IMG/VR virus record: IMGVR_UViG_3300032322_000399
Location: 1-52,820 of that record
DNA from: a virus
Lineage: Duplodnaviria > Caudoviricetes
Length of the DNA: 52,820 bases
Strand: one strand, 5' to 3'
Part shown: one piece after another, positions 3,970 to 52,820 of the stretch
Position numbering within the stretch: position 1 is the first letter of the stretch
Layout: each line of letters begins with the position of its first letter
Notes under the pieces: generated by a model
What the model was told of the DNA's origin: nothing
What the model saw: the letters and a program-made list of their open reading frames with translations, nothing else
Databases searched by the model: none
Position numbers and translations under genes: made by a program

Positions 3970-4186
3970 CGCTCTCGGGCTCCTCGACGGGCTCGGGCTC
4001 CTCGACCGCAGGCGGCTCGGGAGCCGGAGGCGCGGTCCACACGCCGTCCACGAGTGTCCAGCCGATCCACGGATCGCCCTCAGTCTCAACCGCAGACAAA
4101 CCCGTGACCTCCTCAGCGATATCCTGCGAGTCCGCCACGATCACGTTCACTACCGTCGAACCGTCGTGAATAGCGAAGTTAGGCAT
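3962..4186 (-). CDS. Fibre-associated small protein (paralogue of 7420-7749)
   Basis: MPNFAIHDGSTVVNVIVA...IGWTLVDGVWTAP; GAGAGGGA RBS. Confidence 0.65.
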   Translation of the reverse strand: MPNFAIHDGSTVVNVIVADSQDIAEEVTGLSAVETEGDPWIGWTLVDGVWTAPPAPEPPAVEEPEPVEEPESDA

Positions 4187-4197
4187 ATTTCCCTCTC

Positions 4198-4884
4198 TTA
4201 CCTGTATTCCTTGCGCGACCAGAACTGACGCTTGTACGAGTTGAACCAGAGTGAGCGCAGCCTCACAGCCGCTCTCGCCTGAGCGCGGCGATCGTCGTTT
4301 CCGCCTAAGGTCATCTTCCACGAGTCACGCCTAAACGGGATCACCTGAGCGATCGGTGTACCGGCGGGGATTAGGCCCTGCCACTTAGAGTCATTGAGAA
4401 CGAATGGGAAGTTCACCGGAGCCGTGTATCTATCTGTGTCCACGATGCCCGGCAGGATAGTGAACATACCGTTGGGGTTGTGCATAGGTGGGACGAACAG
4501 GCATGAGTGCCCACGCGGAGTCCTAATCGCCCACGGGTTCATCCACTTCGGGTATGCGGGCATAGAGTTCGCCTGCGGATGCTTGTCGGCCTGCTCTATG
4601 GGATGGAACGAAAGCATCTCAGCGAGAGTCCACTCGTACCAAGGCATACCGTCGCGCTGAGTCACCTGCACATCCGCGTAGGTGCGAAGTATGTATCCAG
4701 CCGTCATAGCGTCGAAGACCGGGATGCACTTCTTCACGGTATGCGGTGTCTGCCCGAAGTCAATAACACGCTTACCGCCAATGTACTCCGGCGTTGCCTT
4801 GTACCACTCAGGCAGCAAGCGGCTAGCAGGGACAGGAGCGTACTGCTCATCTATCCCTACGGTGTCCGTGAGTGTGATCTGCAT
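4198..4884 (-). CDS. DUF6065-like protein (possible dUTPase-like fold)
   Basis: PEWYK, TVKKCIPVFDAMTAGY, GIVDTD, IPAGTPIAQVIPF. Confidence 0.55.
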   Translation of the reverse strand: MQITLTDTVGIDEQYAPVPASRLLPEWYKATPEYIGGKRVIDFGQTPHTVKKCIPVFDAMTAGYILRTYADVQVTQRDGMPWYEWTLAEMLSFHPIEQADKHPQANSMPAYPKWMNPWAIRTPRGHSCLFVPPMHNPNGMFTILPGIVDTDRYTAPVNFPFVLNDSKWQGLIPAGTPIAQVIPFRRDSWKMTLGGNDDRRAQARAAVRLRSLWFNSYKRQFWSRKEYR

Positions 4885-8507: not shown

Positions 8508-9094
8508 CAGGCAGCCCTCGCCAATCCCTCGATGACCGTGAACGTAGCGTTCGCGGTCTTGATTATCGTCGCCGTGTAGATGTCGATCGAGTTCGCATTA
8601 CCGGCGCTGGGAGCGGTGCCGCCGATCCAACGCGGAGTGACAGCGGAGCCGTCCACCTGAAACGCTGTCTGGTAGTAGGCGGTGCCGCCGTTCGTCACGA
8701 GGAACGCGATAGTGATGGACTGGCCCGTGGAGAGGAGCGAGTTCAGAGTTGTACCCCCGTTGCCGCGTACGTTCAGCGTCCAGTTCGCAGAAGCGTTCGT
8801 CGTGTAGTAGACGACGCTCGACGTGATCGCATCGAAAGCGATCGTGCCAGTCGCAGCCGTGGCGGAGATCGTGATTGTCTCCTCCGGTGCCGTCAGCACG
8901 GGCGACGTGAGCGAGGCGTTCGCGAGTGTCGCGTATGTCGAAGCCGCCGAGGACTGCGACAGGTACGTCGAAGCCGCCGTCGCAGACTTCAGATACGCAC
9001 CCTCCACGCCGAGCGCGAGCGCCTGCAAGTCCGCGGGCACATTAGCGGCGTCCGAAGAAGACGGGAACGGAAGCCCGCCCGGAGTCGTAGGCAC
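8507..9094 (-). CDS. Fibre base protein
   Basis: MPTTPGGLPFP...NVPADLQAL; PRWIGGTAPSAGNANSIDIY. Confidence 0.7.
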   Translation of the reverse strand: MPTTPGGLPFPSSSDAANVPADLQALALGVEGAYLKSATAASTYLSQSSAASTYATLANASLTSPVLTAPEETITISATAATGTIAFDAITSSVVYYTTNASANWTLNVRGNGGTTLNSLLSTGQSITIAFLVTNGGTAYYQTAFQVDGSAVTPRWIGGTAPSAGNANSIDIYTATIIKTANATFTVIEGLARAA

Positions 9095-11903: not shown

Positions 11904-11944
11904 GCTGACGGGGAGTTATGAGTTCCTCTACCCGGGTATGCCGA

Positions 11945-11977
11945 AGCCCCCGCCCGCTGGAGGTCAGGACGGGGGCT
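11945..11977 (-). terminator. Hairpin ending the early island
   Basis: AGCCCCCG / CGGGGGCT arms just after 11993 stop. Confidence 0.55.
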
Positions 11978-11992
11978 CCGGGGATCGTGGGG

Positions 11993-12818: not shown

Positions 12819-12848
12819 ACTCTACCTAACCCCCGTTAGGTCTGTCAA
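12819..12848 (-). promoter_or_regulatory. SigA-type promoter with palindromic operator in spacer
   Basis: TTGACA-N18-TAGAGT; CTAACGGGGGTTAG at 12826-12839. Confidence 0.85.
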
Positions 12849-16026: not shown

Positions 16027-19000
16027 CTATCTTACTCCTACCGGGGTTAGGGCAGTCAGGGTCGAACTCGGCAGCCGACGCTTCGCGAAGATCGCCACGT
16101 TAGAAGCCGAGGGTGCCTTCGTCGGGCTCTGATCCACGACCGTCGCCTCGACCACGATCTCGCCGTTGTTTCTCTTGTACACCTTGTCCACGCGCAGCGT
16201 CGTACCCGCACCGAGCAGGAGTTCACCCTCACGGTGACCGAAGGACGAGTGCGCTCCCTCGCCGAGGTACGCGCCCTTAGTGCCGCGCGGAGCGCGGATC
16301 ACGAACAGGACACCGCCGGAGAAGCCCTGCGCCGTGCTCGGGTTCAGCGACGTAGACATCACCGAGTGGTCATGCACGAGGTCGCCAGGTTGTAGGGACG
16401 CGTAGGCGTCGCGGGAAGTCCCGGCGACTTGGATACCACGGAACAGGGTCAGATCCTCCGGCAGCGTTGACCTGTTGATCGCCTGCACGGTCGCCTTCAG
16501 TCCGGGGGACATCTTGCCAGGGTCGGTAGATCCTCCGTTACGCATCACCCGGTTCCATGTGCGGAACGACGAGCCCGTGTACCGGGAGAGACCGCTGATC
16601 TCGGTGCTCTTCAGTCCTCGACGCCACGCGTCGAACGCCTGCTGTCCCCACGAGCGCCAGTCCGCGGAGCCCGAGAAGTCGTGCGTGCCCGATAGGTTCA
16701 GCGGGAAGTCGGCCTGCTGCGTGAGCGAGTCGGTGTAGGTGGTGCTGCCCGTCGTGACGCCGGTCTTCGTCGCGGGTGACAACTGATCCCACGGAATCTT
16801 CTTTCCGCCAGGGATGACGACGAACTTCCCAAGCGGGTCGATGCTCTGGATCTCGTATTTCGTGCTCCCGACGTAGACGACGGTGCCCGCCTGGACCGGC
16901 TGCACATCATCGGGCGACGACGTGAACTTCTTCCCCGTCTTCGACTCGATGACGAACGAACCGTCTGGCTTGATCTCCACGACCTTGTACGAGTTCGCAG
17001 GAAACTTCTTCGAGGACACGATGAAGCCGACCTGCGGCTTGAACGGGCGAGCCGAAGCGAACGGGGAGATGCCCGCGTTGCCGGTCGCGATGTAGTCGAA
17101 GTCCACCTTCGACCACACGCTCGCGCTCGTGTATCCATCTGGGTAGATGAAGGTCACGTTCCACGATCCGTCACCGTTGTCTGCGGTGAGTTCGATCACC
17201 ACCGCGTCCTTCTTGTACTTGTCACCGAGCAACGGGTTCTTCGGGTCCGGAGTGTGCGAGGAATCCAAGACCGCGGGCGGCGGCGTCGGGATGTCGGAGT
17301 CGAGGGCCTTCACCTTGTAGTTCGGACCCGCCTTCGAAGCCTGCCAAGTCTTGAACGTCGCGGCGTCCATCCAATCGCCCGACCCCATCGGCGTGTCGCC
17401 GTTGTACGTCAGAATCTTCACCTTGCCGCCGGACTTCTCCGCCACGAGGAACTGATACTTCGTAGCGCCGACCTTGCCTTCGAGCAGCAAGCCCGGCTCC
17501 ACCGCGTCGAAGTCGAGGGTGTCCAGCGTTTCCCCGACCTGCGGCTTCCCGGTCGCGATCGACTTCGGCGGGTACTTCGCTTCGAGCGACTTCAAGCGGG
17601 CCTCTAGCAGATCCGCGAGGACACCGAGATCCGGCTTCAGCGGAAGCGGCAGCCCGTAAAGTTGCGCTTCCTTCCACGTCGCCTCGTACAGGTCGTCCAC
17701 GATCTTCTTCGTGCCCCCGGCTTCGTCCACCGTCTTCCGTAGCAGCGCGACCTGATCGGCGAGGTCGAGGTCGTCCACGGACTTGACTCCGGCCTTCGTG
17801 AGCACCTGCTTGTAGTACTGGTTCTGCGTGAAGAACGCCCCAAGATCGACCTCGTGCAGGTCGGTCGGATCCTTCACCTTCAGGTTGCCCTGCGCCCGGA
17901 ACAGAAGCGAGCCGCCCGCGTCGATGCGTGCGATCGTGCCGTCCGCCAGGACGACGATGTTGTCGAGGCCGGTGCCCACGGCGTCGAAGTTCGCGAGCCA
18001 AGCATCGGCGGCGAACCCGTCCACCGTCTTCTTCGCGCGAGCCGCGGTGAGCCCGAGAGATCCCACGGTGCCCTGGTTGTCGATGATCTCTGTCGCGATG
18101 AGCACCTTCTCCTTGCCCGTGTCAGGATCGGTCCACGTCGAAAGCGTGGTCCGCGGAGCCTTCACACCCGCGGCTGCGTACAGGCGGTTAGCCAGCATCT
18201 CTTGGAAAGCCTGATCCGGGTTCGCGTACGCCTTGACGTAATACTTCTTCCCGTCCTTACCTGTCCAGAATCCGCCGGGCTTGCCGGTGTTCGAGCCCGT
18301 GGGTCCGCCTGTCTGCGTGCCGAGGAGATCGAAGGAGTCCGTGAACGGCGGGAGGTAGTCGCCCTCGGTGGGCTTCAGCGTGCCGTTCGGGTTCGTCGTA
18401 GGGGTCGGGTCGGGCACCGTGACAGGAGCAGCGTCCGGGGTCTTCGGCGGTGCGACCGTCACCGTGTCCGGCGTCGTCTTCATCGTCGCCGACGCGGGGA
18501 TCATCGAGCCGTCGCCGAACGTCGTCTGCGTGCCGTCCGTGAACTTGACGATGTTCCCGTCGATCTGGTGAACCTGCTTGACCTCGCCCTGGTAGTACAT
18601 GAGCGAGCCCGTGGGCATCCCGAGGCACTCCTCCGGGCCGATGATCTTCTCCGTGTACTTCGGGTTCCCGTCCGCGTCCACGCCGATCGCGTACTTCACC
18701 TTCACGAAGCCGTTCGGCAGGATGTCGATGATCTCGCCCGTGCCGCCGTTGCCGTCCTTCAGCGCCGTGTAGCGCCACAGTTTCGGCTGCCACATCGTCG
18801 GGTTCGGGTCTCCGCCTGCGATGACGCTCGGGCCCGGGGGCTTCGCTGACGGGCCGAGGGTGCCGAGGACGTGCTGCGTCTTCTCCGGGCCCGGCACGAT
18901 CGCGAACGCCGTCTTGCCGGATTGCGCGTCGATGTCGATCTCGAACTTTTTCTTCGCTCCCGGCGAGTAGTACAGGATCCCGCCGTTCGGGCCGGTGCCG

Positions 19001-20460
19001 AGCACCGTGTAGCCCTCGGCGTTCTTCTGCTTCGACGTGTACAGGATGTCGCCGGGATGAACCTGAGACGCCTTCGTGATCGGGATCGCCCCGGCGGGTG
19101 CGAGCGGTGGCAGAGGCGCGTCAGGTGTGCCGGAGAAAGCCTGCGCCTTCGCGATCTTGATCGGCCCGGGTACGAGCCCGAACTTCTTCCCCTTCGCTGC
19201 CTGCGCCGCGAAGGATAGGTCGTATGTCGAGCCCTTCGAGCCCGACGACTTCACCTTCAGGGTGCCGGGCTTCGCGCCGGGGCCGATGACTTGCAGACCG
19301 GACTCTCCGCCCGTGGAACCGTCGAAGTAGATCACGTCGCCCGGATCGACTTCCTCGATCTTGTCCACGGGCACCGCGTTCTCCGGTGCCGAGCCGGGTA
19401 GGCCCGAGCACACCGTCAGCGACTTGATGACTCGCAGGTTCACGGGGAAGCGGCGTCCGCAGTTGCCGGGGCAGAGGTCGCAGCGGGTGCCCGCGAACGT
19501 CTGCCCGTCGTCCTCCCAGCCTTCGCCCTTGCCGAGTTCCCCGTTGTCGGTGATGCCCTTATCGGGGGGCAGGATCACGGCGGTGCAGCGGCAGTTCGGG
19601 TGGAGCGGCGGCATCATCGCGCCGTTCGAGAACGGCTGATCCCACTTCGCGCGGATCCCGTTGTAAGGCAGACAATGCACGCACGGGGGGCCGTAGCGGG
19701 ACATGCCCGGGGCGGTGCGCCACTCCTTCACCGAGTCCGGGTCGATGAGTCCTTCGTTCACGCCCTCCTGCCACGCGAGATACCTGCCCTGGTTCGATGC
19801 GGCGAGGATCTCGGTGCGGGCGATCGTGGTCGCGCGGGACTGAAGGAGCCGCTGACGGTAGGAGTCGGCGAGCGCGTCCGCGCGGGAGGCTGCCACGGCA
19901 GGGCTCAGACCCGCCTTGATGAGCGACTCGTAGGTGCGCTGCCGAGAGTTCATCACGGCCTGCGCGTAGCGGTCATGCAAGCCCACGACTTGCTTGATGC
20001 GGGCAGCGGTCGCGTCCACGGTGATGCCGTCGCGCAGGGCTTCGGTGATCATGTTCCGCACGAGCCCGCGCTGCTGGTCCGTGATCTCTACGATGAGTTG
20101 ACCGGCGCGACGCTGCGCCCACGCGATCGCTCGCGGGTCGGTCATCTCGAACGCGCCCGTAAGGTTCAGGCCCGGCCCGAGGTTCGTCGCCCCGGCGGAG
20201 GCGACCACTTCAGCCGCGAGGGTCTCCGGTAGCCCTTCGAGGGCCCCGGTCATCTTGTCCCAGCCGAGTCCCCGCACCACGGCGTCAGCGTCGCGGCGAA
20301 TAATCGCCGACACCACGGCAGCCGAGCCCGCCGCACCGATGACGTACGACCACGAGCCGAGAAGCATCTCGACCAGCGACATCTCCGCCGGAGTAAGCGA
20401 GGACGCCTCGTCCCGGTTCACGGGATCGTCCCACGTCCCGGCCTTGCGGACGACGAGCAC
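16027..20460 (-). CDS. MuF (gp7-like) minor head protein fused to HipA/PI3K-like kinase and VIP2-type ADP-ribosyltransferase
   Basis: RATTIARTE...PPLHPNCRC; YYVK...EMLANRLY...DAWLANFD...NI...IDAG; YTG...LFRG...STS...EGE. Confidence 0.85.
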   Translation of the reverse strand: MLVVRKAGTWDDPVNRDEASSLTPAEMSLVEMLLGSWSYVIGAAGSAAVVSAIIRRDADAVVRGLGWDKMTGALEGLPETLAAEVVASAGATNLGPGLNLTGAFEMTDPRAIAWAQRRAGQLIVEITDQQRGLVRNMITEALRDGITVDATAARIKQVVGLHDRYAQAVMNSRQRTYESLIKAGLSPAVAASRADALADSYRQRLLQSRATTIARTEILAASNQGRYLAWQEGVNEGLIDPDSVKEWRTAPGMSRYGPPCVHCLPYNGIRAKWDQPFSNGAMMPPLHPNCRCTAVILPPDKGITDNGELGKGEGWEDDGQTFAGTRCDLCPGNCGRRFPVNLRVIKSLTVCSGLPGSAPENAVPVDKIEEVDPGDVIYFDGSTGGESGLQVIGPGAKPGTLKVKSSGSKGSTYDLSFAAQAAKGKKFGLVPGPIKIAKAQAFSGTPDAPLPPLAPAGAIPITKASQVHPGDILYTSKQKNAEGYTVLGTGPNGGILYYSPGAKKKFEIDIDAQSGKTAFAIVPGPEKTQHVLGTLGPSAKPPGPSVIAGGDPNPTMWQPKLWRYTALKDGNGGTGEIIDILPNGFVKVKYAIGVDADGNPKYTEKIIGPEECLGMPTGSLMYYQGEVKQVHQIDGNIVKFTDGTQTTFGDGSMIPASATMKTTPDTVTVAPPKTPDAAPVTVPDPTPTTNPNGTLKPTEGDYLPPFTDSFDLLGTQTGGPTGSNTGKPGGFWTGKDGKKYYVKAYANPDQAFQEMLANRLYAAAGVKAPRTTLSTWTDPDTGKEKVLIATEIIDNQGTVGSLGLTAARAKKTVDGFAADAWLANFDAVGTGLDNIVVLADGTIARIDAGGSLLFRAQGNLKVKDPTDLHEVDLGAFFTQNQYYKQVLTKAGVKSVDDLDLADQVALLRKTVDEAGGTKKIVDDLYEATWKEAQLYGLPLPLKPDLGVLADLLEARLKSLEAKYPPKSIATGKPQVGETLDTLDFDAVEPGLLLEGKVGATKYQFLVAEKSGGKVKILTYNGDTPMGSGDWMDAATFKTWQASKAGPNYKVKALDSDIPTPPPAVLDSSHTPDPKNPLLGDKYKKDAVVIELTADNGDGSWNVTFIYPDGYTSASVWSKVDFDYIATGNAGISPFASARPFKPQVGFIVSSKKFPANSYKVVEIKPDGSFVIESKTGKKFTSSPDDVQPVQAGTVVYVGSTKYEIQSIDPLGKFVVIPGGKKIPWDQLSPATKTGVTTGSTTYTDSLTQQADFPLNLSGTHDFSGSADWRSWGQQAFDAWRRGLKSTEISGLSRYTGSSFRTWNRVMRNGGSTDPGKMSPGLKATVQAINRSTLPEDLTLFRGIQVAGTSRDAYASLQPGDLVHDHSVMSTSLNPSTAQGFSGGVLFVIRAPRGTKGAYLGEGAHSSFGHREGELLLGAGTTLRVDKVYKRNNGEIVVEATVVDQSPTKAPSASNVAIFAKRRLPSSTLTALTPVGVR

Positions 20461-31011: not shown

Positions 31012-32156
31012 GCGGGGGTCCGTTCCCCAAGGTAGCGGAAGCCTTGAACGGCCCGCATGTGTCCGCCGAACCCGGCGATTCGGGCCCCGGACTTCTTCAT
31101 CGACTTCAGGGACGCGGCCTTCGATGCCCCGTACAGGCTCGCGGACACCTGAACCCACTTCGGGTCGCGGCGTAGCGCGGCGCATAGTTGCGGATGCGAC
31201 GTGTGGAAGATCGTGGTCATGCGGCGCGGCAGCACACCGTCGCCGAGGCGCTGCATCTCGCAGACGTGGTTCAGGAACTTCAGCCCTAGCCCTGCTCCTT
31301 GCCATTCGGGCATGACGACCATGCGGCAGGCGCGGGCTTCCACGGACTGCACCGTCTTGCCCCTGTGCTTGACAGGGACGTTGCGGGTCGCGATACCGAG
31401 ATGCGCGACAGGTTCACCGTCCACGAACGCGACGTACACCTTGCCCGCGAGCATCGGCCCGGCCTCTAGATAGTGATACGGCTTGAAGGTCTCCCATAAC
31501 TCCCAGCCTCCGAGCCGGATATCGACTTCGATCGGTGAGCGACGTTGATGCCACCCCCAGGCGAACTCGTCCTTGCCGGTGTCGTACACCCAATCGGGTT
31601 GCAGCCAGTCGAGCACGTCATAGTGGCACGTCAGGAGCACGGCCTGACCTGCGTCACGTCGCCAGCCCTTAGCGAACGCCTGAGCGCCGATCTTCGCGAT
31701 CTGCCGATCGACCACGGACGTGAACTCGTCCACGACCACGCGGGCCGGACGCTCGGCGAGGACACGGGCGAGGTCGGCTCGGAACTGTTGCCCCGTCGAA
31801 AGGACCGAGTAGGGGCGGAGCCACGCGCGTACCTCACCGAGCCCGACCTGACCTAGGGCCCCGGTCACGGCATCGAAGTCTTCACCCTTCCCGATCACGT
31901 CGATGATCGGTGCATCCTTAGGCCACCGGAACTGCGACGCCTTGTACGGTGCGCCGTCCCACAGGGCCTTGCCGATGCTCGACTTCCCCGAGCCGGACGG
32001 GCCCACGACCACGCCGATCTGCCACTCCTTCTCCTCGATCGGCAGGTCAGCCACGAGGTCGAACGCGGTCGCGTCCTCACAGTTGAACAGAGACTTGACA
32101 CGGGCCGCGCGGTACGAGTCGAAGTCGCTCGTGCGATGCGCGATCTCGACCTTCAC
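31008..32156 (-). CDS. ABC-type ATPase fused to GNAT acyltransferase
   Basis: GPSGSGKS, LSTGQ, VVVDEF, TCH; RMVVMPEWQGAGLG acyl-CoA motif; GTGA coupling. Confidence 0.88.
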   Translation of the reverse strand: MKVEIAHRTSDFDSYRAARVKSLFNCEDATAFDLVADLPIEEKEWQIGVVVGPSGSGKSSIGKALWDGAPYKASQFRWPKDAPIIDVIGKGEDFDAVTGALGQVGLGEVRAWLRPYSVLSTGQQFRADLARVLAERPARVVVDEFTSVVDRQIAKIGAQAFAKGWRRDAGQAVLLTCHYDVLDWLQPDWVYDTGKDEFAWGWHQRRSPIEVDIRLGGWELWETFKPYHYLEAGPMLAGKVYVAFVDGEPVAHLGIATRNVPVKHRGKTVQSVEARACRMVVMPEWQGAGLGLKFLNHVCEMQRLGDGVLPRRMTTIFHTSHPQLCAALRRDPKWVQVSASLYGASKAASLKSMKKSGARIAGFGGHMRAVQGFRYLGERTPA

Positions 32157-32758
32157 GTCGTCACGACCTTGCACTTGTAACCGTCATCGAGGAGCCGCTG
32201 GTAGGTATCGGCCTGATCCTGCTCGGTGTCGCACATCACGATGACCCCGTACTGCTGGCGGTACTTGTCCTCGACCTCCACGTCATCGAAGTAGTCCGCA
32301 GAGTCGGGGATCTCCTCGTCCTCGGCGTGCTCGTGGAGCAGGAGCGCGGCCTCCTCCGGTGTCCAACCGATGTCTTCGAGCATGTCCATGTCCGAGGCGA
32401 AGTCGGACAGCATGTCAGCGAGGAGAGCGTCGTCGTAGGAACCGATGTCGCCGAGGCGGTTGTCGGCGAGCGCGAACGCGCGAGCGGTCCAGCGGTCATC
32501 GTCCACGAACACGACCGCGATCTTGTCCCAGCCGAGTTCCACGGCGGCGGCGTAGGTGTGGTTGCCTGCGATGATCTCGCCGCGGGCTCCGGTGCCGTCG
32601 AGTTTCCGGACCACGATCGGCTTCCGCTGACCGAAGCGGCGCAGCGACTTCGAGATCCGAGACACGTCACCCCGGCGAGGGTTCCCCTCCAAAGGGAGGA
32701 GTTCCCCGACCGGGGTGAGGAGAGGTTTCAGAGAGTCGGGAACCTTAGGGGATGCCAT
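32153..32758 (-). CDS. ParB/Srx-like N-terminal domain protein
   Basis: NPR...SLRRFGQRKPIVV...IIAGNHT...ALADNR; small C-terminal QYGVIVMC...GYKCKVV domain. Confidence 0.85.
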   Translation of the reverse strand: MASPKVPDSLKPLLTPVGELLPLEGNPRRGDVSRISKSLRRFGQRKPIVVRKLDGTGARGEIIAGNHTYAAAVELGWDKIAVVFVDDDRWTARAFALADNRLGDIGSYDDALLADMLSDFASDMDMLEDIGWTPEEAALLLHEHAEDEEIPDSADYFDDVEVEDKYRQQYGVIVMCDTEQDQADTYQRLLDDGYKCKVVTT

Positions 32759-34206: not shown

Positions 34207-34247
34207 GGTGGCTCCTAACGGTCGGGCGGGGTTGCCTTGACAGATCA

Positions 34248-34277
34248 ACCTTAGCCTAACCCGGGTTAGGAAGTCCA
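34248..34277 (-). promoter_or_regulatory. Promoter with operator
   Basis: TGGACT-N18-TAAGGT; perfect palindrome CTAACCCGGGTTAG at 34256-34269. Confidence 0.8.
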
Positions 34278-38552: not shown

Positions 38553-38594
38553 AACGGCCCGCCCCTCGCATAAGGAGAGGCGGGCCGTTTCGTT
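38553..38594. terminator. Bidirectional intrinsic terminator after the lysis cassette
   Basis: AACGGCCCGCC / GGCGGGCCGTT arms, T-rich flank. Confidence 0.75.
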
Positions 38595-39996: not shown

Positions 39997-40689
39997 TTAG
40001 CGGAGCGTGTTCCATGTGTAGCGGTTTACCTCTCCCGTCACGGACATACCCTTCGCCTGCTGGAAGCGACGTACCGCGAGGGAGAGGTCATAGGTGAACC
40101 GCCCGTTGATCTCGCCCGTGTAGTAGTCCAGGGCGTGCAGGCGATTCTGTACCCATCGTACGTCTTCCCCGTAGTCCGCCCGAGTCAGCGCCCGCCGGAA
40201 CTCCGGGGAGCCTTCCTCGGTGCGCTCCTCCTTACGGAGGGTGACTGCGATAAGACGCATGTCTGGGAGCGGGTGCCCGACCTCGAAGTGCATCGGATCG
40301 GGTCGGCTCGTCCAGTTGTAGCCCCAGACTAGGCCGAGATCCTTCGCGAGCCGCTGCGTCTTCCGCACCGGGAAGGTCGTCTTCTTGACTCCCATAGGGT
40401 TCTTCACGGAGTCGAGGTCGATCGCTCCGCCGACTGAGTGCCATGACTTAGTGCCGGGCACCCCGCGGATGTCCCGGTTCTCGTAGCCCCAATCGTCGCG
40501 GATCCCGGTCTCGAACTCGTACCCCGTCTCCTCGATGCCCTCGATCAGGGCGGTGAAGATCGGGACGAGCGACTTGTGCGCGGTCAGAGTGATCCCGCCT
40601 GCCGTGAACGTGTCGATGTTCTCGACAGCGTAGTCGGGGGCGTCCGGGTCACCGAAGCCCCGCTCGGCGAGTTCCTTCTTGGTTGGCAT
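39997..40689 (-). CDS. Endolysin: M15 peptidase plus peptidoglycan-binding domain
   Basis: WGYENRDIRG...SWHSVGGAIDL...DPMHFE; GEDVRWVQ.RL...AVRRFQ. Confidence 0.85.
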   Translation of the reverse strand: MPTKKELAERGFGDPDAPDYAVENIDTFTAGGITLTAHKSLVPIFTALIEGIEETGYEFETGIRDDWGYENRDIRGVPGTKSWHSVGGAIDLDSVKNPMGVKKTTFPVRKTQRLAKDLGLVWGYNWTSRPDPMHFEVGHPLPDMRLIAVTLRKEERTEEGSPEFRRALTRADYGEDVRWVQNRLHALDYYTGEINGRFTYDLSLAVRRFQQAKGMSVTGEVNRYTWNTLR

Positions 40690-44466: not shown

Positions 44467-48288
<3,822 letters not shown>

Positions 48289-48299
48289 GGGCTACTCCT

Positions 48300-48826
48300 T
48301 CACTTCCTCTTCCGCGCCTGCTCCATCTCCCAGATGCGGATCCGCTCTAGGGCCTCCCACTCCGTGAGTTCCTCAGACGAGAGGGGCCGGTGGGCCGGAC
48401 TGCCGTACAAGAGTTCCTCGACAGTCCGGCCCAACCGCTCCGCTAACTCGAAGACGAACCTTCGGTGTCCGGCTCGGAGGAGTCTTTTCCCGCTTCGTCA
48501 GCGGCCTCCTTCGTGAACCCGGACAGCCGCATCCCCGCCAGGGCGATACGGTCCACGGCGGTAGCGGCCTTACCGAGGAGCGCGTCACGATCGCTCGGCT
48601 CGAACACCTGCATCCCAGTCTCGGGATCGAAGGACGTTGCGATCACGATCTCCGGATACACCATCTGGAGGTCAAGATCACCGCCGTCCTTCATGGCGAG
48701 GTTCATGATGCGGGTCCGCTCGGCAGCGGTCATCCCACGAACCTCGACGGTGAGTTTCCACTCGGGAACTTCCACCGACTCAGTTGCGATGTCCTTTACG
48801 GCGAGGATCTGATCGCGCAGGGACAC
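48300..48826 (-). CDS. Tail assembly chaperone G-T (programmed -1 frameshift product)
   Basis: Slippery GGGAAAA at 48485-48491; -1 frame RRFVFELAERLGRTVEEL...SSEELTEW runs to TGA at 48300. Confidence 0.85.
48443..48826 (-). CDS. Tail assembly chaperone G
   Basis: LRDQIL...VEVPEW...VRGMT...; between tail tube and tape measure. Confidence 0.85.
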   Translation of the reverse strand: MSLRDQILAVKDIATESVEVPEWKLTVEVRGMTAAERTRIMNLAMKDGGDLDLQMVYPEIVIATSFDPETGMQVFEPSDRDALLGKAATAVDRIALAGMRLSGFTKEAADEAGKDSSEPDTEGSSSS

Positions 48827-48886
48827 TAGGTCACTCCTTCGGTTAGGCCACTAGGGCACGGATTACGCGGTGTGGGTATTCAGTTA

Positions 48887-49315
48887 TCAGGCGACGGCGC
48901 GGGTGATCGCACCCGTGACCTGGGCCTCGGCGGAGAACGTCACGGCGTCGCCAACGGAGCCGGTGATCTCGTAGGAGGTCAGGAGGCACTCGCCCGTGTA
49001 CTTCGGGTTCGTGGACGACGCCGAGCCACCGCCGGGGGTGTAGGCGAAGGACACCGTGGCGTCCTGACCCAGCACACCCGAGAGGACAGCATCGACAGTC
49101 GAAGCGCCAGCGGCGTCGAACTTGCCGGAGATGCTGATCGTCGCGTCCGAGAGGCCCATGATGTACTCCTTGGCGTTGTCGCCGAAGGTAGTGACCTCTG
49201 CGGTCTCCAGGGACCGGCTGAACGTAACCTCATCGCAGAACGCGGAGATGTCGGTCAGCGTACCGCTGGAGTTGTCGATCTCGAACTTGGACTTCTTGCC
49301 GTGAATGTATGCCAT
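48887..49315 (-). CDS. Major tail tube protein
   Basis: ETAEVTTFGDNAKEYIMGLSD...GECLLTSYE...VGDAVTFSAE.QVTG. Confidence 0.85.
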   Translation of the reverse strand: MAYIHGKKSKFEIDNSSGTLTDISAFCDEVTFSRSLETAEVTTFGDNAKEYIMGLSDATISISGKFDAAGASTVDAVLSGVLGQDATVSFAYTPGGGSASSTNPKYTGECLLTSYEITGSVGDAVTFSAEAQVTGAITRAVA

Positions 49316-49327
49316 GTGCTTTCTCCT

Positions 49328-50047
49328 TTACCGGCGGGCGAATGTCATCGAGTAGGTGACTGACCCGGTGGACCCACCGGGGGCGTGCGAGGCACGGAGG
49401 TAACGATTCACCGTGCCAGAGACCACGACACGCTCGGCGGTCGTGGACGATGTGCCGACCGACGTGAACGTGGCGAGATCCACGAAGGTCGTGTTGTCGG
49501 ACGAGTGCTGCACCTTGAAGGTGCTAGATCCGTTGCGGGTGTTCGCGGTGACGTGGAGGTACGCGGCTCCGCCGTTCGCGCTCGAAGCGGTGTTGTCCTG
49601 CGATGCTCCGGTGCCGTTCGAGGTCACCGCGGCGTTCCCGGCGAGCACGACTGCGCGATCGACGCCGCCGTCCGCCTGCACTTCCAGGCTCGCCGCTACA
49701 ACGTCGCCCACGGGCGACGATATCTCGTAGGAGGTCTGCTTCACCGCGGCGGAGAAGGCGACCTTCCCGGCGGTCAGGCCCTCGGGGGCCACGGAGATGA
49801 CATCGTTCGCGTCTGCTCCGATCGTGGTCGAGAGCGTCTCGTCCACGGCGGCGGTGTTCCCGTCGAACATGCCGGACAGGGACAGGGTGCCGTCCTGAAG
49901 TCCGACGATGTACGTCTTCGCGGAGTCACCGAACGCAGTCGTCTCCGCGGTCTCCACGACGCGGCTCGCGGTCGCCTCATTGAAGAAGGCGGACAGGTTC
50001 GCGGCCCCGTACAGGACCGCCGTGTTCTTGCCGTGGGTGTATGCCAC
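49328..50047 (-). CDS. Tail tube paralogue with extra C-terminal beta domain
   Basis: N-terminal ~130 aa aligns with 48887-49315; C-terminal KVQHSSDN..F.D...RYLRA. Confidence 0.75.
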   Translation of the reverse strand: MAYTHGKNTAVLYGAANLSAFFNEATASRVVETAETTAFGDSAKTYIVGLQDGTLSLSGMFDGNTAAVDETLSTTIGADANDVISVAPEGLTAGKVAFSAAVKQTSYEISSPVGDVVAASLEVQADGGVDRAVVLAGNAAVTSNGTGASQDNTASSANGGAAYLHVTANTRNGSSTFKVQHSSDNTTFVDLATFTSVGTSSTTAERVVVSGTVNRYLRASHAPGGSTGSVTYSMTFARR

Positions 50048-50049
50048 CG

Positions 50050-50265
50050 CTACTCACTCTCCTCGGGCTCGGGCTCCGGCGTGGGCTCGGGCTCGGGCTC
50101 CGAGGCGGGAGCGGACTTCGACGGCTTGCCCTCGGCGGGCTCGATGTAGCCCTGTTCGAGGAGCCACTTGATGCTCTTAGACGGGATGTCGCCCGTGATC
50201 TCGCCTGCTTCGACGCGGCGGTCAGGGGGAAACTCGATCCCTGCGAGCGCCCGGTACTGGGCCAC
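50050..50265 (-). CDS. Small tail-region protein
   Basis: GAGGGAGG RBS; YRAL.GI...G...D.P...KWLLEQGYIE plus PE repeats. Confidence 0.7.
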   Translation of the reverse strand: MAQYRALAGIEFPPDRRVEAGEITGDIPSKSIKWLLEQGYIEPAEGKPSKSAPASEPEPEPTPEPEPEESE

Positions 50266-50363
50266 TTCGCCTCCCTCGGGGTATGACGCAGCCCCGCACC
50301 GTCGCAGGGCCACAGGGGGCACGTCGAGGGAGACGGCTAGGGGCCACTAGGGCACGCAGGACG

Positions 50364-50374
50364 AGCGTAGCACG
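50364..50374 (-). promoter_or_regulatory. Putative late promoter CGTGCTACGCT, tail operon
   Basis: Identical to 11893-11903. Confidence 0.55.
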
Positions 50375-50399
50375 CTGCGAGAGGGATCTAACGGGAGTA

Positions 50400-50494
50400 G
50401 ATAAGCCTCTCCCCCCGGTAGGAGCCACCTAGACCGGGGGGAGAGACGGGCCGATCTCTACCCGAGGGACGGGGGAGAACCTCGGGGAGATCGG
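50400..50494 (-). ncRNA. Candidate two-hairpin sRNA / terminator with a loop antisense to the AGGAGCCAC start sequences
   Basis: 13-bp stem 50407-50419 / 50433-50445, minus-strand loop CUAGGUGGCUCCU; second hairpin 50451-50494 with C-rich loop. Confidence 0.55.
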
Positions 50495-50512
50495 AGCCTT
50501 ACGGGGGTTAGG

Positions 50513-51244
50513 TTACCGAGCGGTGAGGACGCCCGCAAGGGACGCCTCGACCTTCGAGGTGATGAACTGATCGACGGTGAGGCCCGCCTGACGCGCCGCG
50601 GCCTCGATCATCTCGGGCATGTCCTCGGCGGTCTGCGCCCACCCCGCGGTGAGGCGCTCACGCTCGGACTCGACCTTCGCCTGTTCCCGCGCCTCCACGG
50701 TCGCAGGATCGACGGTGACGACGGGGCGCTTGCCGAACCCGAACATCGGGTCGCGGTCGGAGCGGGTGATCGTGGCGGTGAAGGTGATCCGGTCGCCGAC
50801 CTCGACAGTCGGGCGGACTCGCGCCGGGTAGCCGGTGAACGCGGTGAGTGCCTGCGGGACAGTCATCCACGCGGACCAGCCCTCGTCGGTCTGCACCGTC
50901 ATCTTCCACTCGGGGAAGTGCTCGTCGCCCTTGTTCGCGATCTTCGTCACGACTGCGGCGATGTCGCGGACGCGGCCCTCGGGGGCGACCGTCCCGGCCT
51001 CGGCGGCGGCTGCCTTCTCGGCCTTCAGGGCATCCTCGCGAGCGGTCTGCTCGGCGCGAGCGGCCTGCCACGCGGGGTTCGGGATGCAGCGGTGCGAGGG
51101 CCAGAAGGTGCGGAGGGATCCGAAGTCGCTCCCGCACCAGTCTTTGCGCTGCGCGAGGTACTTCGAGCCGGACTTGCTTTCGGTCCAGCGGACGGTCGCG
51201 CCGCAGTCGCGGCAGGGAAACTCGGGGGAGAGTGCTCGGGTCAT
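50513..51244 (-). CDS. Zn-ribbon plus OB-fold-like protein
   Basis: CRDCG...H.C; VEVGDRITFTATI...FGFGKRP; AGGAGCCAC at 51247. Confidence 0.75.
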   Translation of the reverse strand: MTRALSPEFPCRDCGATVRWTESKSGSKYLAQRKDWCGSDFGSLRTFWPSHRCIPNPAWQAARAEQTAREDALKAEKAAAAEAGTVAPEGRVRDIAAVVTKIANKGDEHFPEWKMTVQTDEGWSAWMTVPQALTAFTGYPARVRPTVEVGDRITFTATITRSDRDPMFGFGKRPVVTVDPATVEAREQAKVESERERLTAGWAQTAEDMPEMIEAAARQAGLTVDQFITSKVEASLAGVLTAR

Positions 51245-51284
51245 CGGTGGCTCCTTCGGTCGGTTGCCCTTTCGGGATACCCCG

Positions 51285-51314
51285 AGCCTAACTAACCCCG
51301 GTTAGGTCTGTCAA
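51285..51314 (-). promoter_or_regulatory. SigA-type promoter with operator
   Basis: TTGACA-N18-TAGGCT; palindrome at 51292-51305. Confidence 0.88.
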
Positions 51315-51418
51315 GCGATACGGCAGGGAGTGTCCAGCCCTCACAATCCCCCGAACCCGAGCCCCCTCCTAGGACACCGCCCACGCCCCGATAGTGCCCC
51401 TACGGGCCCCCTAGAGCC

Positions 51419-51652
51419 TCAGAAGGGCACTAGGTCGCGGATCTGCCTCACCCGTATGTGCAACTGACAGGCGTACACGACGAGATCCTCGATCTCCTCT
51501 AGGGCGTCCTGCACGATCGCGTCCGCGGGCCGCTTCTCGAACCGCTGCACCCCGGACCCGTCGTCGTACTGGATCATCCCCGGCCCCAAGATCCGATCGG
51601 TCAGCCGGTCCACGATCGCCGCAACCTCGGCGGCGTGCTCCTCGGAAGTCAT
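51419..51652 (-). CDS. Small all-alpha NTP-pyrophosphatase-like protein
   Basis: G..QY...DALEEIEDLVVY (EExxD). Confidence 0.55.
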   Translation of the reverse strand: MTSEEHAAEVAAIVDRLTDRILGPGMIQYDDGSGVQRFEKRPADAIVQDALEEIEDLVVYACQLHIRVRQIRDLVPF

Positions 51653-51662
51653 GCCCCGGAGC

Positions 51663-52820
51663 CTAGAGCACGGCTAGGTCAGCCCACCCGCCGTCGCCGA
51701 TCACGATCGACACCATGCCCGCCGGAGAGTCCTGACCCGTGCGATGCCGCCACCACGTCGAGCCCCCGTCGAGCGCCGGGATCTGCATGAAGGACTTCGC
51801 CCCCGACTGCTCGACCCGCAGGTGGTGAAGGTGCGCCGCGAGGAGCATCGTCGCCGAGCCGATCGGCTGCATCCCGTGGGCCTGACCCGCCCACCACTTA
51901 ATCGGATCCCGCCCGAACTGGTGCCCGTGCGCGAACCCGACCGCCGTGCCCGCCACGTCGAGCGTGATCGTGAGTTCGTCATGCTGCGGGAACACGAAAG
52001 ACACATGGTCGTAGCCCTCCGCGAGTTTCAGGGCGTCAGCGACCGCGGCAGCGCCTTCCACGGCCCACGAGTCGTCGTAGCGGCGCACGACCTTGCCCTC
52101 GCGCTGCGCCTCATCGTGGTTGCCCGGAACCACCGGGACCACGATCCGCTCGGCTAGCGGTGCGAACTGCTGCACTTGATGGAGCATGAGCCGCCGATAC
52201 ACCCGCAACTGCTCGGTCATCGTCAGGTCGAGACGGCCCCCACGGGCCAGCGCCCCCCCCTGCGACACGAGACCCTCGATGCAGTCACCGAGCCACGCGA
52301 GCGTAATCGAGTCGATCTTCCGCCCGAGCCTGCGAAGTTCCTTCAGCCGCCGCACCGACAGGTCAGTCTTCACGAGGAACCGCTCGATCGTGCCCTCGGT
52401 GCCGTCCCCGTCCGGCTTACCGAGTTGCAGATCCCCAGCGAGGACGCAGTAGGACAGGCCCTCACCCGTTGCCGCCACGGGAGGCTTCGGCTTCCGCTTC
52501 CCGATCGCCGCCACGAGTTCATCTATCGAGGCCCCGTCACGGAACCGCCGCCGGATAATGTTCGCCCGGTAGTAGTAGAGCCGCTGCACGTTGCCCTCGC
52601 CGATCCCGGCGTCCCACGCCCGGTACTGCACCGGCTCGATGACCTCATACTCGGCAGGGTCGAGATCCCACACCGCGAGGAGTTCAGCCCAGTCCCGAGG
52701 CGGAGCGTCGAGCGGGCTCGTTGTCAGGGTGCCGGAGTTACCGTCCCACGCGACACCGGGCTCCCATCCCGCAGGCGGGCGAGGCGCTGCGGCCCCGCGA
52801 TAGTCCGAGGTCGGGCCCGG
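51663..52820 (-). CDS. Calcineurin-like metallophosphoesterase (start at 257 across the junction)
   Basis: GDLQLG, LGDCIEG, PGNHD, HGH, HLHH; frame open to the window end. Confidence 0.88.
   Translation of the reverse strand, partial: PGPTSDYRGAAAPRPPAGWEPGVAWDGNSGTLTTSPLDAPPRDWAELLAVWDLDPAEYEVIEPVQYRAWDAGIGEGNVQRLYYYRANIIRRRFRDGASIDELVAAIGKRKPKPPVAATGEGLSYCVLAGDLQLGKPDGDGTEGTIERFLVKTDLSVRRLKELRRLGRKIDSITLAWLGDCIEGLVSQGGALARGGRLDLTMTEQLRVYRRLMLHQVQQFAPLAERIVVPVVPGNHDEAQREGKVVRRYDDSWAVEGAAAVADALKLAEGYDHVSFVFPQHDELTITLDVAGTAVGFAHGHQFGRDPIKWWAGQAHGMQPIGSATMLLAAHLHHLRVEQSGAKSFMQIPALDGGSTWWRHRTGQDSPAGMVSIVIGDGGWADLAVL
52600..52820. repeat. Terminal direct repeat, right copy
   Basis: Matches 1-221. 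Confidence 0.95.

Follow-up and report, generated by a model that had tools for sequence, protein, structure and literature searches.

A conserved operon-end pair of hairpins in a phage genome, one with a loop antisense to the phage's start motif

The IMG/VR virus record IMGVR_UViG_3300032322_000399, analyzed here over its whole stretch of 52,820 bases (the window; 66% G+C), carries two adjacent hairpins, A and B, on its minus strand, in the intergenic region ahead of the tail genes. The loop of hairpin B is antisense to AGGAGCCACC, a motif that stands just before start codons of the same phage. The antisense loop exists, is conserved and can pair, and the two hairpins make up a genuine and conserved element at an operon end, with 6C-like ancestry (after the actinobacterial small RNA of that name). 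We read the feature as a 3'-terminal twin-hairpin module of a one-gene early operon whose loops would pair with translation starts. As a complete package we consider this reading evenly balanced between being right and being wrong; its structural and operon-end part is likely, and the proposal that loop B acts by pairing, as a regulator directed against the start motif, is plausible but less likely than not. The element is very likely made as RNA from the minus strand, judged from relatives in which a twin hairpin has compensatory stem changes and loops resembling those of 6C. The parts on which the argument turns are as follows (bp, base pairs; nt, nucleotides; aa, amino acids):

50405..50447, minus strand: hairpin B, with a 15-bp stem (13 perfect pairs), from sequence and fold
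50420..50432, minus strand: loop of hairpin B, CUAGGUGGCUCCU, antisense to AGGAGCCACC, read from the sequence and partly closed by AGG:CCU
51246..51255, minus strand: start motif AGGAGCCACC, followed by G and then by the ATG of a gene for a 243-aa protein, from motif search

Hairpin B and the start motif

An earlier note on this DNA had described a perfect 13-bp stem with a loop complementary to a sequence at 11 early-gene starts, and had proposed that the loop is the only copy of that sequence in the opposite orientation. The stem was confirmed: 50407-50419 and 50433-50445 pair perfectly over 13 bp, or over 15 bp when one G-U pair is counted. Between them lies the loop (50420-50432), with the plus-strand sequence AGGAGCCACCTAG and the minus-strand sequence CUAGGUGGCUCCU. 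The 9-mer AGGAGCCAC occurs 13 times in the window versus 0.59 expected, a count reached in 0 of 100 shuffles; 11 copies lie on the minus (gene) strand, and all 11 sit 1-3 nt before an ATG. The 10-mer AGGAGCCACC occurs seven times (0.11 expected), six times at gene starts and once, reversed, in loop B. The described complementarity to gene starts therefore holds, with 11 sense copies for the 9-mer and six for the 10-mer. The loop is indeed the sole reversed copy of the 10-mer, but not of the 9-mer, which has a second reversed copy at 50159-50167, within the coding sequence of a small gene (it encodes K-W-L-L there and is common to two relatives at that place). The term "early" did not survive: motif-bearing genes are not simply early, being scattered between the terminase, portal and capsid genes.

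The window motif has two properties of the start-associated sequences of Cluster K mycobacteriophages. It is a short asymmetric repeat with copies far above chance, and it lies a few nt before start codons, mostly ATG (11/11 here), with AGGAG inside. Its CCAC is not complementary to what we take to be the usual actinobacterial 16S 3' end, which may not be that of the host. Exact scans of IMG/VR with the motif-plus-ATG 14-mer gave scattered single matches in unrelated contigs and no locus with at least three motif copies; those with the loop 14-mer likewise gave scattered single matches in unrelated contigs, and 0 of 28 checked loci had a comparable flanking stem.

At four genes (40689, 32758, the 30305 region and 21933) a -10-like hexamer (TAGGAT, TAGACT or TACACT) stands exactly 6 nt before the start codon, with CCCCGG ahead, a layout which suggests that these genes have leaderless mRNAs. 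Since the spacing of (T/A)AGGAG-N5-7-ATG is that of the leaderless -10-N6-ATG arrangement, the start motif could double as a -10-like element.

Pairing of loop B with the 11 motif-bearing start regions was predicted at -18 to -22 kcal/mol (mean -20.0), whereas 54 other starts averaged -12.2 kcal/mol. Net of opening costs, the 11 regions gave -6.6 to -14.3 kcal/mol, where the net energy is the sum of duplex energy and opening cost, with no loop-topology penalty; pairing of the kind put forward in the earlier note is thus predicted to be energetically favourable. A calculation of hairpin plus target with RNAcofold gave about 0 kcal/mol and was discarded, because the program cannot form loop-target pairs that cross a stem. 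About 0.055 reversed 10-mers are expected per strand, and about 0.3% of the genome lies in loops of hairpins with stems of at least 12 bp, which together put the chance of the match at about 1e-4; this estimate is naive and post hoc, and the true surprise is smaller given the rival explanations.

Three other accounts of the locus were tried and rejected. The frame of a plus-strand open reading frame (ORF) at 50283-50432 is broken by indels relative to the closest relative, and the ORF is not conserved. A plus-strand gene start at the reversed motif lacks a start codon after the motif. For an RNA-based replication origin (compare parABS prophages, in passages of PMC7157519), the ParB-like gene at 32153-32758 lies 18 kb off. 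Another 15-bp intergenic hairpin stands on the minus strand at 11941-11981, and its loop, UGACCUCCAGC, holds the anti-Shine-Dalgarno core CCUCC.

The operon end, its relatives and Cluster K phages

The closest relative, L224, is a metagenome contig whose tail protein is 88% identical and whose layout is that of the window. In the order in which the minus strand is read, the surroundings of hairpin B are:

51285..51314, minus strand: likely early promoter of the 243-aa gene, with TTGACA, an 18-nt spacer and TAGGCT, and with the palindromic operator CCTAACCGGGGTTAG in the spacer (read from the sequence, function presumed)
50513..51244, minus strand: gene for the 243-aa protein, from the ORF list; the hairpins sit in its 3' untranslated region (UTR)
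50497..50512, minus strand: operator-like palindrome CCTAACCCCCGTAAGG, directly after the stop codon and ahead of both hairpins; 17/17 identical in L224
50452..50495, minus strand: hairpin A, with the C-rich loop UUCUCCCCCGUC (6C-type), from fold
50364..50391, minus strand: putative tail-operon promoter, with TTAGAT, a 16-nt spacer and TACGCT, read from the sequence
50266..50357, minus strand: conserved tail-operon leader, with boxes GTGCCCTAGTGGCCCC, GACGTGCCCCCTGTGGCC and GGTGCGGGG, then a Shine-Dalgarno sequence, from comparison with relatives
50050..50265, minus strand: small gene, first of the tail module, 71 aa from a GTG at 50265, with two major tail protein genes next

The earlier note had placed the element in the 3' UTR of a gene that itself carries the start motif, behind an operator half-site and beside a second hairpin, and this layout bears out all three statements. 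Folded as RNA, the 250-nt intergenic region reached -120.4 kcal/mol versus -98.1 +/- 5.3 for shuffles (z = -4.2), and hairpins A and B were predicted in minimum-energy and centroid structures alike. They start 18 nt past the stop codon, upstream of the conserved promoter-like hexamers and leader; the -35-like TTAGAT begins about 13 nt past hairpin B. With a promoter and the 243-aa gene before them and promoter-like hexamers and a leader after them, the hairpins mark the boundary between the one-gene early operon and the tail operon. A consensus scan of 49900-51500 found no terminator-like sites (the tail after hairpin B is GCUUAUCUACU). Consensus scanning also found no promoter at the boundary between hairpins and tail gene; since it misses the clear TTGACA promoter too, its silence carries little weight.

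The sigma-70-like layout of the 51285-51314 promoter, with an operator in the spacer, recurs at other motif-bearing genes and is conserved in L224. Promoters of the TTGACA-N18-TAGGCT type with a 16-bp palindrome, CCTAACCCCGGTTAGG, in the spacer stand at 51285-51314 and near 34265, 28029, 26746 and 25029 (sense), and further such sites, read on the plus strand, lie near 12831 and 27655. The palindrome looks like the operator of a repressor controlling motif-bearing genes. L224 conserves both hexamers of the tail promoter but not its spacer, and in relatives the corresponding place is taken by TAGACT or TACACT. A 37-nt block (50337-50373), which starts shortly before the -10 hexamer and extends to the end of box 1, is identical to L224 at 36 of 37 positions. 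The leader is strongly conserved in other relatives as well (L003 336-440, L004 905-1009, L007 5675-5779 and others). It contains two direct repeats, CGTGCCC-N2-3-GTGGCC, about 33 nt apart, in addition to the GGTGCGGGG box; a small hairpin between its boxes varies in sequence among relatives, with little covariation according to RNAalifold. The complete relative G001 has a second copy of the leader after its tail-tube genes.

Linker and hairpin B are identical between L224 and the window at 46 of 47 positions (98%), and the loop at 13 of 13; identity elsewhere is 75% in the upstream gene, 85% in the tail gene and 71% in the stretch after hairpin B. Hairpin A, identical in 33 of 46 columns, still pairs and keeps its C-rich loop. 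By this comparison hairpin B is under strong constraint at every base, and selection at the RNA level or at the DNA level would fit equally. In L224, AGGAGCCACC again precedes the gene that opens the upstream operon, here an additional small GTG-start ORF (about 4020-4200) that separates the motif from the homologue of the 243-aa protein; the motif therefore goes with first place in the operon rather than with one given protein. The hairpins are also covered, at about 94% identity, by a 7.2-kb contig of run X2.

Searching IMG/VR with the tail protein gave 43 loci, and the upstream regions of 21 were folded. In eight of the 21, hairpins with C-rich loops (UCCCCC) stand right after the stop codon of the upstream gene, five times as two in tandem, and the gene upstream of them varies. 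A covariance model (R1), built from L003, L004, L006 and L009, finds seven distinct twin hairpins with two C-rich loops in related contigs, at the pre-tail position. In its alignment 95.8% of cells pair, and both partners have changed in 11 of the 22 pairs; no shuffle out of 500 reached this score, and pairing in slid controls was 33-60%. These figures lean towards the structure, since the rows were aligned by fitting to the model, with one reverse-strand echo among them. The window element belongs to this twin-hairpin family by position only.

According to passages of PMC6486639, 6C is an actinobacterial small RNA (sRNA) whose C-rich loops bind G-rich sites in multiple mRNAs without a chaperone. 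Of five related genomes, four have a full-length match to the Rfam 6C model (RF01066; gathering score 47 bits), with 31.2-43.1 bits and E = 2e-6 to 3e-4 per genome; every score stays below the gathering score. The pre-tail position accounts for three of these matches, and the fourth is a second 6C-like copy in the G005 genome, away from the tail operon, with 43.1 bits. Look-alikes of 6C stand at L047 1501-1576 (G005 contig 8739-8814), L006 5604-5683, L007 5570-5648, L010 2217-2301, L003 230-310 and L004 802-877. In the window, the best match anywhere is 10.4 bits, away from the locus. Hairpins A and B share with 6C the arrangement as two adjacent hairpins. They do not share a C-rich apical loop in both hairpins: loop A (UUCUCCCCCGUC) is C-rich, but in hairpin B the second C-run makes up the 5' arm of the stem, so that loop B (CUAGGUGGCUCCU) does not qualify. 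A literature search that covered result listings and passages of PMC6582537 turned up no report of a phage-borne 6C.

On the gene strand of the 43 relatives, within the fetched flanks, AGGAGCCAC was not found. G001, which is 61 kb long, has a start motif of its own, AAGGGAG, at 18 starts, 13 in the orientation of the tail genes and five before genes of the opposite strand. This motif reads gAAGGGAGa (sense at 20143, 32359 and 35189, for example; L198-L201) and is often preceded by a promoter-like TACACT/TAAACT-GGGGTTA element.

Cluster K mycobacteriophages carry start-associated sequences in 11-19 copies, in one orientation and a few nt before mostly-ATG starts, and K1 phages have a single reversed one that is not at a gene start, as described in passages of Pope et al. 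(2011; PMC3203893). Passages of 2024-2025 papers still call the function of these sequences unknown (PMC11373665, PMC12699233). We found 16 sense copies and one reversed copy in Anaya (at most two mismatches). The reversed copy lies between genes 96 and 97, where the sense strand CCUCCUAUCC fills a 10-nt hairpin loop. The hairpin region is conserved in 165 phage records. An alignment of 15 records keeps the inner stem and has compensatory changes in the outer stem; the antisense loop is present in eight of the 15 rows, Tierra and Krueger have UUCUCCCUUCCC instead, and the remaining five comprise two other pyrimidine-rich loops, one row without a loop and two unrelated rows. This structured region lies near the right end of the genome and is mostly unannotated (L197 48780-48990, that is, Anaya 59779-59989; homologues L209-L222). 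The parallel with Cluster K is real but not strict.

Nearly all window genes are carried by the minus strand. Positions 1-221 are repeated at 52600-52820 with four mismatches; this terminal repeat makes it probable that the window is a complete genome, about 52.6 kb long and circularly permuted, contrary to the label in the source collection (linear, 87% complete). By PHROG matches, the minus strand runs from an exonuclease, the 243-aa protein, the hairpin intergenic region, the small gene and two major tail proteins through a chaperone, tape measure protein, minor tail proteins, endolysins and Gam-like and Erf-like recombination genes to a ParB-like gene, terminase, small genes, portal, a MuF-like giant protein and capsid. 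The closest named phages for the tail protein are Arthrobacter and Microbacterium phages, at 31-40% identity. The two major tail proteins are adjacent paralogues (49328-50047 and 48887-49315, minus strand; 239 and 142 aa), and such pairs also occur in the Arthrobacter phage matches, with two matching places per record. The 243-aa protein matches PHROG families of unknown function only (phrog_4265, E = 8e-12); it has no match in Pfam and no relatives in IMG/VR or JGI metagenome contigs. The giant protein, of 1477 aa (16027-20460, minus strand), has an N-terminal MuF-like head-morphogenesis part, and its residues 1236-1444 match a PHROG family annotated as ADP-ribosyltransferase exoenzyme toxin (E = 3e-9), so its C-terminal part may be an effector domain carried in the virion. 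A search of the genome collection with a 23-mer of hairpin B and with the tail protein found nothing, and identified no prophage or host.

Weighing the readings

As we read the element, transcription from the early promoter would end or pause at the hairpins, which would insulate the tail operon and leave behind some 100 nt of nuclease-resistant RNA, whose loops would base-pair with translation start regions, as those of 6C do. Loop A would pair with ribosome-binding sites of the GGGGAG type; for loop B the partner would be the AGGAGCCAC(C) motif at 11 phage genes, that of its own mRNA among them, with delayed negative feedback on the gene set as the outcome.

Several findings weigh against this reading. 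The AGG of loop B is predicted to pair with CCU inside the loop at more than 90% probability, as the earlier note had rightly cautioned; the clearly free bases are UGGCU and the bulged first base, C (unpaired 0.99-1.0), while the next base, U, has 0.70. A 10-bp helix within a 13-nt loop would also be sterically strained. Loop B also bears a likeness to leader box 1 and to the operator half-site. Its stem is invariant in L224, with no compensatory changes, unlike hairpin A, which fits a DNA or protein site as well as an RNA. Neither R1 nor the Rfam 6C model has a match at E <= 1 at the window locus or the L224 locus, R1 having none anywhere in the window or L224. Both hairpins have long loops (12-13 nt) and no U-tract and are thus not canonical intrinsic terminators. 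A search for RNA runs containing 46000-52820 gave no match. Finally, the expectation that loop and start motif should change together in relatives, by which the earlier note would have its proposal judged, leans negative. The G001 loops, UACUCCCCCUG and AUCCCCCCG, complement only GGGAG (5 nt) of the G001 motif, so the loops of relatives look like general anti-ribosome-binding-site loops and not like motif-specific antisense. Krueger, with the same Cluster K motif in 14 exact sense copies, has no reversed copy (at most two mismatches) and a different loop.

The earlier note had gone further and proposed a discrete RNA of about 100 nt that acts in trans, its loop B silencing all AGGAGCCAC genes while leaderless and late genes escape, with CCAC kept as the target. 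We regard this as possible but doubtful. In its favour, the loop matches perfectly over 10 nt, holds the sole reversed 10-mer and does not vary in L224; the predicted pairing is still favourable after opening costs, relatives have a 6C-like scaffold, Cluster K1 offers a parallel, and leaderless-type starts without the motif do exist (for example, TAGGAT-N6-ATG at 40689 and 32758). However, the loop is predicted to be mostly closed, and the single RNA made per early transcript would have to act on at least 11 mRNAs. Genes with the motif form no coherent early block, the tests for joint change of loop and motif, in G001 and in Cluster K, lean negative, and a protein or promoter-like geometry could explain the conservation of CCAC equally well.

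Hairpin B could also be a site in double-stranded DNA: the 43-bp palindrome, its centre some 69 bp ahead of where the tail operon probably starts, would be recognized by a phage regulator, either a late activator or the repressor that binds the operator. The sequence of such a site would then have given rise to the reversed motif as a by-product. Identity to L224 comes in blocks (17/17, 46/47, 36/37) separated by diverged spacers, a pattern typical of protein-binding sites, and both arms resemble the operator/promoter half-site CCCCGGT(T)AGG, although these half-sites are arranged opposite to those of the true operator. A palindrome built from half-sites leaves only about three free central bases (CCA), and hence the chance of a motif match rises to an estimated 0.02 or so. 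The plus-strand 12-mer CCCCGGTAGGAG recurs once on the gene strand, near 16046, and the loop sequence CTAGGTGGCTCCTA resembles leader box 1, CTAG-TGGCCCCTA, which is conserved in relatives without the start motif; this likeness, however, needs an indel. What makes a DNA site doubtful to us is that the hairpin of relatives changes in sequence yet keeps its pairing (G-U pairs included) and its C-rich loops, which points to selection at the RNA level.

A simpler account is that the hairpins are plain tandem terminators, or hairpins that stabilize the mRNA, and that the antisense match is a coincidence or the leftover of an inverted duplication of a motif-bearing start. Their position at an operon end with a promoter directly next to them agrees with this, as do other strong intergenic hairpins with unrelated loops (such as 38553-38589, CUUAUGC), and the plus-strand CCGGTAGGAGCCACC matches the motif context at 34208 (CCGTTAGGAGCCACC) at 14 of 15 positions, as a duplication would leave. 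We nevertheless consider this account unlikely: C-rich loops persist in relatives despite altered stems, loop B does not vary in L224 next to sequence that is 71-85% identical, the naive chance of the match is low, and there is no U-tract. Very unlikely, finally, is pairing in cis, with loop B reaching back some 800 nt along its own mRNA to the start motif there and autoregulating the 243-aa gene or circularizing its mRNA, because, although this site has the full 10-nt match, one of the best net energies (-13.3 kcal/mol) and presumably the high local concentration of an intramolecular partner, the extra L224 ORF separates motif from 243-aa homologue while the hairpin is unchanged, and conservation of the other 10 motif copies is left unexplained.

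Comparison with known systems

Like intrinsic terminators and sRNAs derived from 3' UTRs, the window hairpins are GC-rich and stand directly after a stop codon and before the next promoter; a stable 3' fragment of a transcript could act in trans. The short loop and U-tract that, with a GC-rich stem, define an intrinsic terminator are absent. A model for the DNA-site explanation is provided by stoperators, many short asymmetric sites that are oriented with transcription, spread over the genome and bound by the repressor as DNA. Unlike the window motif, stoperators are not at a fixed distance from start codons.

Two RNAs are comparable by mode of action. RNAIII of Staphylococcus aureus uses hairpin loops that pair with the Shine-Dalgarno regions of several mRNAs and block their translation, which is the kind of pairing proposed for the window element. 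RNAIII is, however, a large effector of quorum sensing with its own promoter, whereas the window element is about 100 nt long and lies at a phage operon end. The c4 RNA of phages P1/P7 is a phage antisense RNA that comes from the same transcript as its target and masks a ribosome-binding site via short complementary stretches. It is cut out by RNase P and has one downstream target in an immunity circuit, whereas some 11 dispersed targets are proposed for the window element.

6C (called B11 in mycobacteria) consists of two adjacent GC-rich hairpins with C-rich apical loops, and hairpin A of the window has such a loop. Passages of PMC6486639 describe pairing of the 6C loops with G-rich sequences near the ribosome-binding sites of several mRNAs; relatives of the window match the 6C model full length. 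Unlike 6C itself, the window has no match, the phage matches stay below 47 bits, loop B is a different sequence and the second C-run lies in a stem; the phage element is also found in a 3' UTR and not at the conserved chromosomal 6C locus. Since 6C overproduction stops host growth (passages of PMC6486639), the 6C look-alikes carried by phages of Actinobacteria could serve host takeover or the timing of phage genes.

Finally, the window motif and the start-associated sequences of Cluster K are both short asymmetric repeats with AGGAG and extra conserved bases, and each has one reversed copy in a hairpin loop (in Anaya, and for the 10-mer in the window). The two phages are unrelated, and the Cluster K consensus, GGGATAGGAGCCC, shares only AGGAGCC with AGGAGCCAC(C), so that the window motif is an analogue and not a member. 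Copies in Cluster K stay within the non-structural arm, while those of the window are interspersed among head genes, and in the Krueger/Tierra lineage the same motif goes with a loop that is not exact antisense. Two unrelated systems each have a single reversed motif in the apical loop of a conserved intergenic hairpin on the sense transcript. As a conjecture that is improbable as it stands, we propose that start-associated sequences of actinobacteriophages, here AGGAGCCACC and in Cluster K1 GGGATAGGAGCCC, are the targets of a phage-encoded antisense hairpin loop. In the lineage of the window, the hairpin would have arisen when one loop of a phage-borne 6C-like sRNA turned from G-rich sites of the host type to the start motif of the phage itself, and the result would be a self-timed translational shut-off of a dispersed gene set. 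If true, the antisense hairpin loop would be the first concrete mechanism for start-associated sequences, which were described in 2011, and the Cluster K1 phages of Mycobacterium smegmatis, for which phage engineering and RNA-seq exist, would be a tractable setting in which to study it.

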